A stretch of DNA of 19,782 nt from a virus (taxonomy: Duplodnaviria; Heunggongvirae; Uroviricota; Caudoviricetes). Shown here piece after piece: positions 1-18,230 of this stretch. Every line of letters begins with the position of its first letter. Positions within the stretch are counted from its first letter, which is position 1. The stretch lies in the IMG/VR virus record IMGVR_UViG_2711768053_000018, positions 1 through 19,782 of that record; one strand, given 5' to 3'. Under the pieces are notes generated by a model, which saw nothing but the letters and a program-made list of their open reading frames with translations, was not told the origin of the DNA and did not search any database. The position numbers and the translations under genes were made by a program.

Positions 1-57
1 CACCGCCGCCCCGCCGAGCGCCACAGCCGTGCCGGAACCGGATAAGGGTTCAGACAT
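1..57 (-). CDS. N-terminal fragment (19 codons in window) of an unknown protein continuing past the left edge
   Basis: ATG at 57..55 preceded by GGAG 8 nt upstream on the minus strand; reads MSEPLSGSGTAVALGGAAV. Too short to assign; its position downstream of the late region would fit a lysis gene, but that is speculation. Confidence 0.3.
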   Translation of the reverse strand, partial: MSEPLSGSGTAVALGGAAV

Positions 58-69
58 ACTTTTTTCTCC

Positions 70-98
70 TGTAAATAAAAAAGGGCCACCAGCGGCCC
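70..98 (-). terminator. Rho-independent terminator candidate
   Basis: GC stem GGGCC/GGCCC (83-87 / 94-98) with a 6-nt loop, followed on the minus strand by TTTTTTATTT. Confidence 0.45.
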
Positions 99-376
99 GT
101 AAAAAACACCCCGTCAAAAGCACCGGCATCCGCAGATGCCCTTTGCGTGGCGTTATTTGATGCGCACCAGATGTGGCGCAAAGAAATGAAATAAGACTTA
201 TCGGAAATTAAGGTTAATTTGAGGATTTAAACCACTTCTGAAGCTTAGTAGTATGAACATGTCCCCGGAAGGGGGCCAATACTTATTATTCTTCATGGAC
301 TTTGTCCCGCGGTCTTAATCCGACGACCGCGCTACTTTTCACCCTCTCGCAAATTGCTATCCAAAGGACGTTGTCC

Positions 377-409
377 CACGAGTATTCCTGGATGCTCGTG
401 TCTTTTTTT
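377..409 (+). terminator. Rho-independent terminator candidate (plus strand)
   Basis: Stem CACGAG/CTCGTG (377-382 / 395-400), extendable by two pairs, followed by TCTTTTTTT (401-409). Confidence 0.4.
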
Positions 410-423
410 GTCCTGAGAAAGGA

Positions 424-450
424 ATAAAAAAAACCGCCAGATATGGCGGT
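424..450 (-). terminator. Rho-independent terminator
   Basis: Perfect 7-bp stem ACCGCCA/TGGCGGT (433-439 / 444-450) with a 4-nt loop, followed on the minus strand by a run of eight T. Confidence 0.55.
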
Positions 451-814
451 TGGTCAATGCAAGGGATGAATTTTTTAATTGTTATTAAACCGAGGCGTCG
501 GGTGCCTCCCGAAGTATTCCGTGCTGTATGGATACTGTGGTTTCCCGCTAAACCGACTCTTTAAACCACCCTCGCACTGAGGAGCGCCTCTATGGTGCGA
601 TTTACAACACCAGAATGATGCATCACCGACCCTGCCAGGAAATACAAAATCTCCACCGATAATGCACCATTCTGCTGCCGTAAAAAAATCAGCACTGAGG
701 CTACACCCGGCCTCAAATCATAGCCAGAGAACAGAATGCTTTTTCAAAACAACCTGCTCCCACGTAATAAAAAATACGCCAGTGCCGCAATACAATAAGG
801 CTTGTTTCAAATGC

Positions 815-889
<75 letters not shown>

Positions 890-892
890 ATA

Positions 893-968
<76 letters not shown>

Positions 969-1204
969 ATTGGTTCTTCAGGGGAGCGATATCACCGAGC
1001 AAAGAAGAGTTCCCCCTCAGAACCGTTTTCGATGATACGATTTAATATTCCAATCGCAACAACACTTTGCGTCAAGTTATGTAAATTTATTTATATGTTT
1101 TTATTTTATGTGAATAATTCACTTTCACTTAAAATATACATGACAATATATAAACAAATTTATTTTGAAGGAGATTATTAAATGTCGTTTCTTATATAAC
1201 ACCG

Positions 1205-1235
1205 CAGAAACAACAAAACCCGCTCGATGGCGGGT
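1205..1235 (-). terminator. Rho-independent terminator candidate (tR'-like position downstream of the Q-like gene)
   Basis: Stem ACCCGC/GCGGGT (1218-1223 / 1230-1235) with a 6-nt loop, followed on the minus strand by TTTGTTGTTTCT. Sits about 100 nt downstream of the 1333..1869 gene in an AT-rich region. Confidence 0.4.
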
Positions 1236-1332
1236 TCTATTAAAGTTCAATTGCGCTTGATTCGCCTCGCGATACAGCTTTGCGAAGCGTACCAAAATTG
1301 AAGCAGTTTGTGGCTCATTTTGCAATGATTTT

Positions 1333-1869
1333 TTAAGCATAATCGAACGCTTCTCTCATAGGTGAATACAAAATGAACTCAGCAACACGCAACCACTGCT
1401 CAACACGACGTCGGCATGTAATCAACGCCCACTCTGGGTACTGTTCGTTTAATAACTCTGCCATCCTTCTCTTACTCATCCCTCGCCCCACATAACGCTG
1501 ACTCAGGACATTTAGTAGTCCTGGATGATCCGCCAGAACTTCACCTATAACACTATCAATTTTTAGTGCCTCTGCATCAGTGCAGTGAGTTAACCAGCTT
1601 TTTTGCTTTCCTTCGATCATCTCACGCAAAAATGCTTCCAACTCTGGTTTATCAATTCCCGCTTTTTTCAATCTGCGCAGGGCTTCATTGATGGCTGTTT
1701 TTGTCATTTTTTGGGATGCCAGCAACTGGTTAAACATATTCCCTGACCTGCCGCCGCCAATATACGACCAGCGCCCCCACATACGTAGTTTTCCCTGAAT
1801 CCAGACACTTTCCAGCGTGGTGAGACGAAGGTGTTCTCCGCTTTTTCCTGTATTCGTTGGGTAAATCAT
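1333..1869 (-). CDS. Putative late-gene regulator (Q-like antiterminator candidate)
   Basis: Start placed at the internal ATG 1869 (MIYPTNTGKSG...) because it overlaps the upstream stop as TCATGA-type coupling. The assignment is positional: last gene before an AT-rich promoter/terminator region and the tRNAs. A C-terminal segment (GMSKRRMAELL) is HTH-like. Family not recognised with certainty. Confidence 0.4.
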   Translation of the reverse strand: MIYPTNTGKSGEHLRLTTLESVWIQGKLRMWGRWSYIGGGRSGNMFNQLLASQKMTKTAINEALRRLKKAGIDKPELEAFLREMIEGKQKSWLTHCTDAEALKIDSVIGEVLADHPGLLNVLSQRYVGRGMSKRRMAELLNEQYPEWALITCRRRVEQWLRVAEFILYSPMREAFDYA

Positions 1870-2156
1870 AAATATCCCTCCTTTCTCCAGATTTCTTGTG
1901 TGCGAAAAACACCTTCTGCATGCATCAGGCGTAATTCTTCTTTGGTGTAATCGCTGGTTTTTACCCGCCCGTCGATTAAATCGTGGCACGAGCTACAGGC
2001 AATCGCTGCCTGCATATTGTGTGGCTTTATCGCTGTTCCGCACGTTCCCGCCAGTCGGTAATGCGCCAGCACAGACGTTTCCGGATCGTGATTGCAGTAG
2101 CCAGGAATTCTGACGGTGCACATCTGCCCCCGCGTCGCTTTACGTAAGTCCACCAT
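1866..2156 (-). CDS. YbcO-like Cys-rich protein (DUF1364-like, putative nuclease)
   Basis: 96 aa, MVDLRKATRGQMCTVRIPGYCNHDPETSVLAH...IACSSCHD; resembles DLP12 YbcO from memory. Start overlaps the upstream stop (TAATG). Confidence 0.65.
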   Translation of the reverse strand: MVDLRKATRGQMCTVRIPGYCNHDPETSVLAHYRLAGTCGTAIKPHNMQAAIACSSCHDLIDGRVKTSDYTKEELRLMHAEGVFRTQEIWRKEGYL

Positions 2157-2755
2157 TACGCAAACTCCAGCAGCTGCGCGGCCACATTTTCGACTTGTTC
2201 CGGAGAGGAAAATTTACGGAACAGAATCCAGTTCCACAGCACATTCAGTACAGATTTATAAACCTGCTGAAACACGGTTTCGTCCATATTCGCAAACGCG
2301 ATAGATTTCGCCCGACGCCCACGGCTACCATCAGGATAAAGATGCTCGGTGTAAAATCCGGCCTGAATGGTTACCCACTCGCGGAAAGCCTCAAACGATT
2401 TTAGCAATGCCGTATCCCGGGTTCTGCGTGTCGCAACTGTATTTAGATATTGCTCTGCGGCATCACTCAGGGCTGGTGTGTGTTCCCGACCAACTGATTC
2501 GCACAGGTAATCCACGAAACCAGACAGCAGTTCTCGTTCGCGAGGCGTGATCGCCCCACCGACCGGAGTCCAGTAATCGAATCCCAGTTGCAGGAGTTTG
2601 AAAAAACGCTTGTGGAATGCGTAGTTACGCACACGCTTAAAGTCTGCGTGTATCCACTCACCTATTTTGATTTGATGCAGAAAATCGCAACTCTCCGGCG
2701 TCGCCGGGAGAAGTAAACCAGAAGAGGTTTGTTTGACCAGTTGTATATGCGCCAT
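2156..2755 (-). CDS. nin-region phage protein (DUF1367-like)
   Basis: 199-aa ORF translationally coupled to the downstream YbcO-like gene; family assignment from memory only. Confidence 0.5.
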   Translation of the reverse strand: MAHIQLVKQTSSGLLLPATPESCDFLHQIKIGEWIHADFKRVRNYAFHKRFFKLLQLGFDYWTPVGGAITPRERELLSGFVDYLCESVGREHTPALSDAAEQYLNTVATRRTRDTALLKSFEAFREWVTIQAGFYTEHLYPDGSRGRRAKSIAFANMDETVFQQVYKSVLNVLWNWILFRKFSSPEQVENVAAQLLEFA

Positions 2756-3028
2756 TTCTCAATCTCTCGATGGCGCAGTGCAGCAGATGCCAGTTGTTCA
2801 GGCTGACGTATAAAGTATAAATAAACTGATTCCAGTGTAAAGCCCCCACATTGATGGAATAAAAACCAAACAACAAATTGCTGGGATAAAAACAACGCTT
2901 ATTATTAAAAGCGGTTAAACAAATTAAATTTTAATGTTATGCAAATCTGCCAGATCACCATAATATCTCATTTGAAAACCGCTGAAATAACAACCCTATC
3001 AGGATTAATCATATTAAGGTGAGTAAAT

Positions 3029-3115
3029 ATGGAAAACAACAAATCTGCACATTACGTTCCTTTTTTATCTGTAATACTTTTTGTTTTATGCTGTGCGTGG
3101 GCATTATTTTTATAA
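3029..3115 (+). CDS. 28-aa hydrophobic small protein candidate (MENNKSAHYVPFLSVILFVLCCAWALFL)
   Basis: ATG at 3029 preceded by AAGGTGAG with 5-nt spacing; polar N-terminus then about 19 hydrophobic residues; followed by a hairpin at 3137-3152. Below the 60-aa track cutoff. Confidence 0.3.
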   Translation: MENNKSAHYVPFLSVILFVLCCAWALFL

Positions 3116-3135
3116 AAATATTCACAGATAAAATA

Positions 3136-3153
3136 TACCCGCCGAAGCGGGTT
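3136..3153. terminator. Bidirectional terminator candidate between the convergent small ORF and the ATPase/TOPRIM cassette
   Basis: Stem ACCCGC/GCGGGT with loop CGAA (3137-3152), T-rich on the plus side and A/T-rich on the minus side. A second hairpin GCCTGAT/ATCAGGC lies at 3175-3197. Confidence 0.35.
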
Positions 3154-3218
3154 TAGTGCGGGTGCGTTGAGGATGCCTGATAAAGCTTACATCAGGCCGA
3201 TTTCACTGATTTCAGACC

Positions 3219-3752
3219 TTATTCCACCAAGCGGAAATGCCTAGCAAAATTTGACTTCATATCCGCAACAGGCTTTAACGCATCGTGTAGCCCCCGGGAA
3301 AACCACAGATGCTCTCGAATCCCCAGCTTAATTAATTTACCCAGCGAATCATTACATGCTATAAAATCCCTTTTAAAATCATTAATTCCGGATGTTTTCC
3401 TTCCGCAAAAACAATAAATCAACTGAGGAATGGATTTATTGCAGCACCAGCTCAATTCTTCTTCAAAATTACTTGTTTGCTGAAACAAATATATCCGATG
3501 CCCTCTGGAACGTAAAAATTTCACGTTTTCTATAAATCTTGCCGATTGCTCAACCTGATCTGAATCAAACACAACAAATATATCACTACCCTTTGGTATT
3601 GCCATCGCATACCTATGTATCCGATCCTGCCAGAAATTCTTCTTAACAACATCCTTCACAGCAATAATCTTATCTCTCTTCATTTTTTTGAACAGAGATA
3701 ATTCTGTTTCACCTTCAACGAAAACGATTGTAACTGTTGCTCTTGCTGCCAT
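3219..3752 (-). CDS. Small TOPRIM-like (OLD-type) nuclease-domain protein, partner of the upstream ATPase
   Basis: 177 aa. N-terminal IVFVEGETE (conserved Glu of TOPRIM strand 1) and VVFDSD (DxD motif). Start ATG lies 1 nt after the ATPase stop (TAAaATG). AT-rich by eye. Confidence 0.6.
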   Translation of the reverse strand: MAARATVTIVFVEGETELSLFKKMKRDKIIAVKDVVKKNFWQDRIHRYAMAIPKGSDIFVVFDSDQVEQSARFIENVKFLRSRGHRIYLFQQTSNFEEELSWCCNKSIPQLIYCFCGRKTSGINDFKRDFIACNDSLGKLIKLGIREHLWFSRGLHDALKPVADMKSNFARHFRLVE

Positions 3753-3753
3753 T

Positions 3754-4950
3754 TTAAAGCAACTCCGAAACTAAAGACATATCAGGCATAACGCCAAAGA
3801 TATCCCGTGCAACTGCACTTCGTATACTCCTGTCGTTTTTTTTCAGGAGTGAGCCTGCTTCAATGAACTCAGTGCAATCATTATCCTTTTTGAGAAAAAT
3901 GAACGAATGAACAGGCAAGTCAAGCTCAAAAATATCCATATTATGTGTGGTGTAGAAAAACTGAGTGTTTTCCTTAAGCCTAGAAATAATCAGCGTAACG
4001 ATTATCCGCTCCAGTTCTGAATGAGAGTAGGCTAACTTCTCATCAAGGTAATAGGTCATTGACGGAATGTTGGAGCACACACCAAGTTCTTCACAATCAG
4101 AGATTATCGCACTGACAAAATGAGCTATTGTGACAGCATCGAAGGTGCCCCGTGACATACGATCTGAGTTCGTTATGTCGCCTTTACTTGTTACGATTGA
4201 ATAATCCTTGTTTTTAAACCTTATCAAATAAACCTTGGTGGGATTTTTGCCTTCCGACTCAGGTTCAGTCATCTCAACGACGCCAACAATACTTGAATCA
4301 AAAGTGCGAATTATTCTTTCAAGAATATCTTTATTCATTCTTGAAATTTCAGCTGTACTTTCTTGAATCCCTGACAACTGGTAATACCACCCCCCCGAAA
4401 AAATAACGCTCTTGAAGGGTTCGAGAGTAACAGTATTACCATCAGAATAACTCTCATGAAAATAATATTCAGCAGAGGTTGGAGCCCCCGCAGAAAATAG
4501 TTTGTTTAGCTTTTCTGTTGTTTTAAAACAGGAGTCATTTATGTTTATTTTCACATAACCATATTTCACTTCTTTAACAAAAAGTGCACCTGTTTCATTT
4601 GCAGCAAAGCGAACATACAACCTGTGATGCAAGAAGTTCTCTGTCGCAAAATCCACTTCAAAGGAGGCATCCTGATCCCTGTGGTTAAGTCGCAGACTGG
4701 AGCGCAGCTCTTTGGTTCTGATAAAAACCTGAATCCCACACAATATTCTGCCCAGAGAGGTTTTCCCGGAAGCGTTCCCTCCAGTAATGATACAGACTTT
4801 CTTATAATAAAATTTAGGTCTGCCCGCCAGATGCTCACCCTCAAGCGGTATATTCACCTGCTTCTTGGGGTATGAAAGATTCAGTTCTGCGTTGCAGAAT
4901 GCATACAGATTTACAAGTTTTATGCGCGTGAAAATCATTTTTTCTTCCAT
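3754..4950 (-). CDS. ABC-type (AAA_21-like) ATPase of a candidate defence module
   Basis: 398 aa. Walker A ITGGNASGKTSLGRIL, Walker B-like YYLDE, H-loop FFYTTHNMD. An alternative start at 4938 (MIFTRIK) has a better-spaced GGAAG. Upstream minus-strand promoter candidate TTGTTG-17-GATAAT (plus 5000-4995 / 4977-4972). AT-rich relative to neighbours by eye. Confidence 0.8.
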   Translation of the reverse strand: MEEKMIFTRIKLVNLYAFCNAELNLSYPKKQVNIPLEGEHLAGRPKFYYKKVCIITGGNASGKTSLGRILCGIQVFIRTKELRSSLRLNHRDQDASFEVDFATENFLHHRLYVRFAANETGALFVKEVKYGYVKININDSCFKTTEKLNKLFSAGAPTSAEYYFHESYSDGNTVTLEPFKSVIFSGGWYYQLSGIQESTAEISRMNKDILERIIRTFDSSIVGVVEMTEPESEGKNPTKVYLIRFKNKDYSIVTSKGDITNSDRMSRGTFDAVTIAHFVSAIISDCEELGVCSNIPSMTYYLDEKLAYSHSELERIIVTLIISRLKENTQFFYTTHNMDIFELDLPVHSFIFLKKDNDCTEFIEAGSLLKKNDRSIRSAVARDIFGVMPDMSLVSELL

Positions 4951-17839: not shown

Positions 17840-18049
17840 TTTATGACAAAAACTTTGAGATATGACGATGTTAAACCATGTCCGTTTTGTGGTTGTCCAT
17901 CAGTAACGGTGAAAGACATTTCAGGATATTACCGGGCAAAATGCAACGGATGCGAATCCCGAACTGGCTATGGTGGAAGTGAAAAAGAAGCGCTCGAAAG
18001 ATGGAATAAACGAACTACTGAAAATATTAATGGAGGCGTTCATGTATAA
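17840..18049 (+). CDS. ralR: Restriction alleviation protein RalR (Lar)
   Basis: Start at ATG 17840 (MTKTLRYDDVKPCPFCGCPS...); Cys-rich; matches Rac RalR from memory. Confidence 0.8.
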   Translation, partial: FMTKTLRYDDVKPCPFCGCPSVTVKDISGYYRAKCNGCESRTGYGGSEKEALERWNKRTTENINGGVHV

Positions 18050-18230
18050 AATTACCGCTACAATTGAAAAGGAAGGTGGCACTCCTACTAACTGGACAAG
18101 ATATTCAAAATCTAAACTAACGAAATCAGAATGCGAAAAAATGCTCTCAGGTAAAAAAGAAGCAGGCGTTTCCAGAGAGCAGAAAGTAAAACTGATAAAT
18201 TTTAATTGCGAGAAACTTCAGTCCTCGTGA
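18042..18230 (+). CDS. ydaC: YdaC-like protein
   Basis: ATG 18042 (MYKITATIEKEGG...) overlapping the ralR 3' end, with GGAGG 6 nt upstream. Confidence 0.6.
   Translation: MYKITATIEKEGGTPTNWTRYSKSKLTKSECEKMLSGKKEAGVSREQKVKLINFNCEKLQSS

Follow-up and report, generated by a model that had tools for sequence, protein, structure and literature searches.

A predicted phage 21-like late-gene switch behind a DUF1133 gene in a Rac-type lambdoid prophage of Escherichia coli

The stretch of DNA analyzed here, 19,782 nucleotides long and referred to as the window, probably carries on its minus strand, from position 1869 to 1207, the late-gene switch of a Rac-type lambdoid E. coli prophage, built in the manner of phage 21. 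An antiterminator gene is followed by its own predicted promoter, a predicted protein-binding site, a pause signal and a terminator (Table 1), and we are fairly confident that this order represents an ordinary lambdoid late on-switch. Judged from its sequence, the DUF1133 protein encoded here is a divergent branch of the phage 21 Q family, which has already been studied, and is not a new kind of regulator. Only two points appear mildly new: a layout with a single recognizable subsite for the protein and a pattern in which two residues go together with DNA specificity. The accepted picture of Q antitermination is unchanged by the present findings.

Bases 2-2200 of the window show an identity of 99.9% to NZ_LR778147 and of 97% to E. 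coli W; 80% or more of this part is present in 169 complete genomes. The window also encodes RecE, YdaT, a lambda-P-like protein and the RalA antitoxin RNA. The gene order around the switch is DUF1367, YbcO, Q, tRNAs, two holins and endolysin. The stop codon of the 178-aa gene (1335..1333) is followed by a gene-free stretch of 364 nt and then by tRNA-Thr and tRNA-Gly, the first genes past the switch, while about 750 nt without genes lie between the tRNA pair and the holin start near 57 (minus strand). The holin annotation comes from E. coli W, where the first holin is followed by a second holin and then by an M15 endolysin. A first-pass annotation of this DNA had described the stretch behind the Q-like gene as poor in ORFs, and indeed we found no credible gene in it: a 71-aa ORF (1125..1340) has no Pfam or PHROG match and overlaps the terminator, and a plus-strand ORF of five codons (ATG at 1183) with a strong Shine-Dalgarno sequence is absent from the related E. 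ruysiae locus L008 and was treated as a chance occurrence.

Table 1. Positions of genes, predicted signals and other features of the window
Feature	Position	Strand	Basis or remark
DUF1367/NinB-like gene	2755..2156	minus	
YbcO gene	2156..1866	minus	
Q-like antiterminator gene, 178 aa + stop	1869..1333	minus	DUF1133, distant Q21 homologue
Helix-turn-helix codons (S132 K133 R134 ... I150 T151 C152 R153 R154 R155)	1405..1476	minus	alignments
Predicted pR' -35, TTGCAA	1320..1325	minus	7 nt after stop codon
Predicted Q-binding element, single subsite TGAGCCAC	1310..1317	minus	Q21 half-site TGAGCA
Predicted extended -10: TG 1305..1304, C, TTCAAT 1302..1297	1297..1305	minus	17 bp after -35
Predicted sigma-dependent pause element TACGCT (1291..1286) with invariant early transcribed block TACGCTTCGCAAAGCTGTATC	1271..1291	minus	
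tR'-like intrinsic terminator	1207..1237	minus	GAACCCGC-catcga-GCGGGTT-TTGTTGTTTC
AT-rich spacer, 19-23% GC	1050..1200		composition; downstream of terminator
Candidate sigma-70 promoter for tRNA pair, TTGCGA-N16-TATCAT	1032..1059	minus	promoter scan
tRNA-Thr(TGT)	968..893	minus	ARAGORN; Rfam 73.8 bits
tRNA-Gly(TCC)	889..815	minus	ARAGORN; Rfam 65.6 bits
Second strong intrinsic terminator, late leader	432..451	minus	-12.4 kcal/mol, z -3.96
Third terminator-like hairpin, just upstream of holin gene	83..98	minus	-10.8 kcal/mol, z -1.9

The DUF1133 protein and the Q21 family

The gene product had at first been taken for a possible non-canonical antiterminator of an unrecognized family, to be checked by a profile search against Q families. 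That search gave it a name and does not support such a reading. The protein matches Pfam DUF1133 (PF06576) with residues 1-175 on profile positions 1-175 of 176 (E 1.2e-101, 337.9 bits vs a gathering score of 23.1) and, again above the gathering score, PF06530, the Q21/Q933W family (30.0 bits vs 26, E 5.4e-7, residues 69-139 only). Precomputed PF06530 matches are recorded for nearly all members of the DUF1133 family. DUF1133 can be regarded as a divergent branch of the Q21 family, one which has already been called Q-like or antitermination protein: PHROG 753, "anti-termination protein Q-like", is matched with E 1e-76, the UniRef name of the exact same protein in E. coli W is "Antitermination protein", and a survey of Stx phages lists DUF1133 as "Q antiterminator (HHPred)" (PMC8136144). 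NCBIfam holds no model or name for the 178-aa protein, and neither the lambda Q profile PF03589 nor any third Q family was matched in Pfam at E up to 0.1. Members of DUF1133 come from enterobacteria and are few: there are 71 clusters when the family is grouped at 50% identity, mostly fragments.

Comparisons with known structures point in the same direction. Q21 gave the only significant phmmer matches among PDB sequences (E 2e-4), and hhalign of a DUF1133 profile built from 20 sequences aligned 133 columns with Q21 residues 6-151 (96.6% probability, E 6e-10), a match which reaches the N-terminal segment that forms the exit-channel ring. The AF2 model, made from an alignment of 42 sequences, is of moderate quality (pLDDT 71; >85 in the C-terminal half and <50 at the N-terminus and the insertion). 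Searched with Foldseek, this model found Q21 in all of its top 11 PDB matches (probability 1.00, TM 0.59-0.68 on target), and the next match had an E above 4. According to the model, the 178-aa protein would therefore have the Q21 fold, that is, an N-terminal helix and a sigma-R4-like helical body.

The closest known system is that of phage 21, with Q21, pR'21, QBE, pause element and tR' (PDB 6P18, 6P19, 6P1A, 6JNX, 6JNY; PMC6606751; bioRxiv 10.1101/651190). The two proteins are homologous by sequence, profile and predicted fold, while the window protein has only about 20% identity to Q21 and about 29 aa inserted after the N-terminal helix. In Q21 the DNA-reading HT[loop]H motif comprises S93/K94/H95, loop residue R113 and A124/T125/R127/R128, and R127 and R128 are among the base-reading residues (PMC6606751). 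S132, K133, T151, R153 and R154 of the window protein keep the corresponding residues, H95 is replaced by R134 and A124 by I150, and R153 and R154 align with the base-contacting R127 and R128. The recognition helix reads LITCRRR in the window (L-I150-T151-C-R153-R154) vs LATCRRE in Q21 (L-A124-T125-C-R127-R128), with xTCRR in common. The loop which carries R113, and which in Q21 contacts the minor groove and the second protomer, is 13 residues shorter in the window protein.

The predicted late promoter, binding site and pause element

Past the stop codon the minus strand of the window reads stop, aaaatca, TTGCAA-aa-TGAGCCAC-aaacTGc-TTCAAT-tttgg-TACGCT. The first-pass annotation had proposed that a promoter be looked for on the minus strand of 1236-1340, and a simple sigma-70 consensus scan gave none there; because of this, the promoter assignment rests on the relatives and on the comparison with phage 21. 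We recovered the phage-21-type late region from viral contigs containing the published QBE. Its pR' reads Q stop, aacgtg, TTGACA-tcat-TGAGCAAA-TGAGCAAC-actattcgcA-TAAGCT-terminator and fits the published numbering: C occurs at -21 and -13, and replacement of the C's at +1 to +20 leaves a C-less RNA of 20 nt whose first C is at +21. Since this numbering is reproduced, TAAGCT at +2 to +7 is the -10-like pause element of phage 21.

The window shares with phage 21 the half-site TGAGC, the pause element TAnGCT, a promoter which starts shortly past the Q stop (6 nt in phage 21, 7 nt in the window), a terminator within 100 nt and the possibility that tRNAs follow. TGAGC begins exactly 26 nt before TAnGCT in the window and likewise in phage 21, if the distance is taken from the upstream Q21 subsite; the protomer bound there makes up the RNA exit-channel ring and is thought to travel with the polymerase. 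The combination TGAGC-N21-TAnGCT occurs once in the window vs 0.03 expected. At the level of the sequence, a predicted -10-like pause element lies at a fixed distance from the predicted binding element and is followed by a terminator. In other respects the two regions differ: the window promoter lies 2 bp closer to the pause element, its -10 is TG-n-TTCAAT and not AACACT, and the predicted short RNA is about 80 nt long instead of about 50 nt.

A further difference concerns the number of subsites. Phage 21 has a direct repeat of two, TGAGCA(AA) and TGAGCA(AC), and both are required (PMC6606751). When two directly repeated subsites 8 bp apart were sought between the -35 and the -10, the window offered one TGAGC-type 8-mer (1317..1310), and no second TGAGC subsite, direct or 8 bp away, was found. 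The 8 bp after the 8-mer (AAACTGCT) hold the conserved TG of the extended -10 and are constant across the classes of recognition helix described below. A TGAGCA in the transcribed region of one branch was also considered as a subsite and rejected, being present whatever the helix class. A search of the literature with the literal conserved 17-18-mers matched no paper.

The start of transcription is predicted at A1290, in which case the pause element would overlap the start site (-1 to +5) and be closer to it than in lambda (+1 to +6) or phage 21 (+2 to +7). The same switch could have another anatomy, with the TG-preceded TACGCT (1291..1286) as promoter -10 and a start near 1279, so that TGAGCCAC would lie at about -38 to -31, over the -35 position, and TATCGC (1274..1269) would be the pause element; Q would engage polymerase in a scrunched initial transcribing complex, with sigma region 2 still on the promoter -10, or might be a class-II-like activator too. 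The A at -11 is the most conserved base of sigma-70 promoters, and the -10 proposed by us (TTCAAT; T-T-n-A-A-T in relatives) never has it, whereas TAnGCT has T, A and T at the equivalents of -12, -11 and -7. A TG is found one base upstream of TAnGCT in the window, in the branch with 192-aa proteins and in some other E. coli-type variants; many E. coli variants, however, have CGG and not TGn at this place, which in the absence of a -35 would make a very poor promoter. With the 26-nt offset, Q would be positioned with respect to a sigma-bound TAnGCT just as it is in the loading complex of Q21, which fits either role. On the other hand, this anatomy does not account for the near-invariant TTG, for the 17-bp spacing or for TG and TTnAAT, later -10-like hexamers stand at a variable distance (40-43 nt) from the 8-mer, and the homologous TAAGCT of phage 21 is transcribed (+2 to +7). 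We consider such an anatomy improbable and retain TTCAAT as the predicted -10.

With this assignment, and with the biochemical steps taken from Q21, the switch could operate in the following way. The late promoter would fire constitutively and, as long as Q is missing, polymerase would stop at 1237..1207 after about 80 nt. Once accumulated, Q would bind TGAGCCAC (1317..1310) through its helix-turn-helix (T151, C152, R153, R154), while sigma-70 region 2 would re-bind the -10-like TACGCT (1291..1286) and make the young complex pause about 12 nt into the transcript. Q could then move onto the polymerase and render it resistant to terminators; if the nozzle mechanism applies here by analogy with Q21, Q would narrow the RNA exit channel and so block the formation of the terminator hairpin. 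Polymerase would thus pass three terminators (1237..1207, 451..432 and 98..83) and reach the tRNAs, the holin and endolysin genes and the late genes.

Conservation and co-variation in related loci

For comparison we fetched 37 genome loci and 80 viral-contig loci encoding relatives of 37-100% identity. A layout with fixed spacing, consisting of TTGnnn, 2 nt, an 8-mer, 7 nt usually ending in TGn, T-T-n-A-A-T, 5 nt and TAnGCT, is present in 92 of the 113 Q-bearing loci (45 distinct variants). It is found after the stop codon, as in the window, or within the last codons of a longer, 192-aa protein, and as it is kept inside and outside the reading frame, a DNA signal is favored over a coding constraint. 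In the 45 promoter variants the TTG of the -35 is invariant at any position with respect to the stop codon (-24 to +22), TG is found in nearly all of them and the -10 hexamer follows the pattern T-T-n-A-A-T. Even where the later transcript is unalignable between lineages, its first 21 nucleotides (TAyGCTTCGCAAAGCTGTATC) do not vary, which points to a possible role at the DNA level, such as pausing.

In these 92 loci the sequence of the 8-mer changes together with the two variable residues in the recognition helix (T-C-x-x-R). Proteins with RR at these positions go with TGAGC(C/A), apart from one locus with TGAACC and one with TGCACC, while the 8-mer begins with TGACG when the helix has ER, with TTACG when it has EK, with TTGCGCGG when it has ES or EN and with TTATCC when it has RN. 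The helix codons and the 8-mer are only about 100 bp apart, and part of this co-variation could be simple linkage. Linkage is nevertheless insufficient as a full explanation, because the type of early transcribed region does not follow the helix classes, although this region is closer to the 8-mer than are the helix codons. The window itself is a mosaic in relation to E. ruysiae L008: the two are mostly 85-100% identical over 2200-1600 and 1280-961, vs 58-68% over 1520-1321, and it is in this interval that the helix-turn-helix codons lie, together with the -35 and the 8-mer.

Tentatively, and with somewhat more doubt than confidence, we propose that DUF1133 antiterminators load from a single subsite, equivalent to the Q21 subsite of the ring-forming protomer, and that residues 153 and 154 constitute a simple recognition code (RR-TGAGC, ER-TGACG, EK-TTACG, ES/EN-TTGCGCGG, RN-TTATCC). 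If this is true, there would be at least five natural late-switch specificities, possibly mutually orthogonal, and the cassette of helix plus site (for example 1520..1310 in the window) would appear to have been swapped between near-identical prophages. The co-variation predicts which two residues would set the specificity of Q for DNA, and the question is raised of whether one subsite is sufficient. For annotation, thousands of enterobacterial prophage genes listed as "DUF1133 family protein" may be read as Q21-type late antiterminators, whose late promoter, binding site, pause element and terminator could be found by a simple spacing rule.

Terminators, predicted short RNA and the tRNA region

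The claim of a minus-strand terminator about 100 nt past the Q-like gene stands: the hairpin at 1237..1207 starts 96 nt after the stop codon and has a folding energy of -17.4 kcal/mol (z -4.86), which none of 200 shuffled sequences equalled. It escaped a pattern scan only because A's located upstream are able to pair with the U-tract. A AACCCGCC...GCGGGTTTT hairpin is present at a similar place in nearly all relatives. Further terminators downstream, also claimed at the outset, were found on the minus strand at 451..432 and 98..83.

Without Q, RNA starting at 1290 is predicted to end at 1237..1207, giving a transcript of about 80 nt which folds at -35.9 kcal/mol (z -3.7). In lysogens such an RNA (1290..~1210) might have a function of its own as a small RNA, as StxS or IsrK have, and not be a by-product. 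This is a separate matter, compatible with the late switch preferred here, and we hold it to be unlikely, if less so than the alternative promoter anatomy. Precedents are StxS of Stx phages (PMC7547250) and IsrK of Gifsy-1, whose family maps to the equivalent place after DUF1133 genes of relatives; the predicted RNA folds well, and many prophages share the module between -10 and terminator at 78-94% identity. However, the transcript past +21 is unalignable between lineages and the terminator is the only structure shared, the 5' stem of the window not being kept in relatives; in the aligned relatives this stem has no two-sided compensatory change, and no RNA covariation was seen. Nor does the RNA belong to any Rfam family at threshold, the best being a Trp_leader match at 1210-1300 (22 bits vs 41, E 0.28), which we take for a chance match to a terminator-like fold. 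A match of STnc100 at 422-618 is likewise below threshold, and isrK (RF01394) has no match in 1-3200 at E up to 1 nor in the whole window at the gathering score.

Some relatives do carry isrK. Rfam RF01394 is matched with 67-76 bits directly downstream of 184-aa DUF1133 genes in Salmonella and E. coli relatives (loci L006, L009 from Salmonella, and L072), and the match starts 7 nt after a TATATT hexamer; isrJ has no match in the relatives. In Gifsy-1, isrK is preceded by antQ, whose Q-like product is experimentally toxic and whose expression interferes with termination, and IsrK is a short terminated RNA which partly reads through into downstream genes (PMC4825925). We found no Gifsy-1 record in the phage collection at megablast sensitivity; from the position of the genes we infer that AntQ belongs to DUF1133 and that IsrK represents the short RNA made from the late promoter in this subgroup, which would link this Salmonella small RNA to the family. 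The arrangement of Q-like gene, promoter, short terminated RNA and read-through downstream is the same as that predicted for the window, IsrK taking the place of the predicted RNA. The differences lie in the helix class (CS/RN), the 8-mer (TTATCCGG), the promoter (TTGACT-N18-TATATT), the sequence of the RNA and the C4/antirepressor module which follows, absent from the window. The only -10-like hexamer of isrK-type promoters lies at 30 nt, and not at 26 nt, from the matched 8-mer.

It could also be supposed that the terminator just ends the early (pR-nin-Q) operon and that DUF1133 has some other DNA-binding role, as repressor or activator, with no Q-dependent promoter. This would agree with the consensus scan, which passes no promoter, and with the fact that DUF1133 has no NCBIfam name and that the Q activity of the 178-aa protein is predicted. 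Against it stand the full-length homology and the fold match to Q21, including the exit-channel ring segment, the conserved promoter-like block with a Q21-type half-site and a pause element at Q21 spacing, the isrK-type relatives, in which a known RNA starts right after the gene and ends at a terminator (PMC4825925), and the position of the late lysis genes, which three terminators precede and for which no other late promoter is obvious. We find this explanation very hard to accept and continue with the late switch.

The switch had originally been compared with the pR'/qut/tR' unit of lambda. As far as geometry is concerned the comparison is good, since a Q-like gene is followed by a predicted late promoter containing a predicted Q site, then by a terminator, more terminators, tRNAs and lysis genes; the protein, however, is outside the lambda Q family, and lambda is an analogy only. 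The lambda system (Q, pR', qut, 6S RNA, tR') agrees with the window in its logic and in the order of the genes: the binding element is situated between the -35 and -10 hexamers, the transcript opens with a -10-like pause element, and a short, terminated RNA is made constitutively. It differs in having no sequence relationship to the window (PF03589 is unmatched), in an RNA of 194 nt and in the need for an extra -35-like element. The late region of Stx phages, with Q933 or Q21, pR', StxS, tR', a tRNA promoter, tRNAs, stx and lysis genes (PMC7547250), resembles the window in its terminator, separate promoter and tRNA genes between Q and the lysis genes, and its short pR' RNA can be a regulator. 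In contrast to Stx phages, where this RNA is 258 nt long and processed, the window has no toxin genes, other tRNAs (Thr and Gly) and another Q subfamily.

The region had been called an AT-rich late-control region, a label which merged two things. Its terminator and geometry are as described, while the control unit itself (1325..1207) has 43-48% GC, and AT-rich is true only of about 1050-1200 (19-23% GC), which lies downstream of the terminator and outside the switch. This block is common to close relatives only, in contrast to the widely shared module from the -10 to the terminator. It probably forms the upstream part of a promoter that would serve the tRNA pair independently of Q; the candidate promoter is situated at the downstream edge of the block. 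A start has been mapped between tR' and the tRNAs in a Stx2a phage (PMC7547250). In C. braakii L004, the most divergent of the compared set, the candidate is kept as TTGAAA-N16-TATTAT.

Divergence and tandem arrangement of Q-type modules

Comparison of the window with the related DUF1133 locus of E. ruysiae (L008) revealed a divergent cassette at 1310-1520, where identity is 58-68% within surrounding DNA that is mostly 85-100% identical. This cassette spans the predicted DNA-reading helices of the Q protein, the predicted -35 and the predicted binding 8-mer, and it looks like a swapped specificity module. In three other relatives (L006, L072 and the Salmonella locus L009) an isrK match lies 3' of a 184-aa DUF1133 gene and is followed by a C4 antisense RNA with a1/b1 targets. 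In L072 these are followed by a 203-aa ORF, which from its position and N-terminal sequence we take to be a putative antirepressor, and further on by a second late-promoter-like module (TTGCAA-tt-TTAGCCAT-...-TACGCT-...-terminator). L072 would therefore carry two tandem Q-type cassettes, one on each side of a P1-like c4/ant module. Two DUF1133 loci (L010 and L021) were found on contigs labelled Candidatus Nanosynbacter (MAG) and Vagococcus, and most likely represent enterobacterial contamination or mis-binning of these assemblies.

Coordinates of features in the window and in the L072 relative
Feature	Location	Strand	Evidence or motif
isrK/C4 region	L072 3052-4060 (also in L006, L009)		
Two-gene AbiL-type candidate anti-phage system	window 3219-4950	minus	PADLOC matches
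RalA antitoxin small RNA	window 18048-18226	minus	Rfam, 218 bits vs 170
Five-codon ORF MSFLI, ATG at 1183	window 1166-1200	plus	strong Shine-Dalgarno GAAGGAG
Candidate tRNA promoter	window 1032-1076	minus	TTGCGA-N16-TATCAT
Terminator-like hairpin	window 377-400	plus	

Other prophage systems

The candidate AbiL-type system, flanked by the nin region on one side and by replication genes on the other, consists of a 398-aa ATPase (AbiLi, E 8e-23) and, next after it, a 177-aa partner whose match is weak (AbiLii, E 8e-4). RalA belongs to the RalR/RalA type I toxin-antitoxin system of the Rac prophage.

Small features around the tRNA genes

The MSFLI ORF is antisense to late transcription; since L008 keeps neither its Shine-Dalgarno sequence nor its stop codon, it is probably a chance occurrence. 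Between tRNA-Gly and the holin, approximately 750 nt (100-815) are without credible genes and contain minus-strand terminators in addition to the plus-strand hairpin, and a match to STnc100 at 422-618 is sub-threshold (18 bits vs 47). Upstream of the candidate tRNA promoter by 32 nt there is a second conserved hexamer, TTGACG, with AT-rich DNA above, and the C. braakii locus (L004) retains both the hexamers and the spacing of the candidate promoter.
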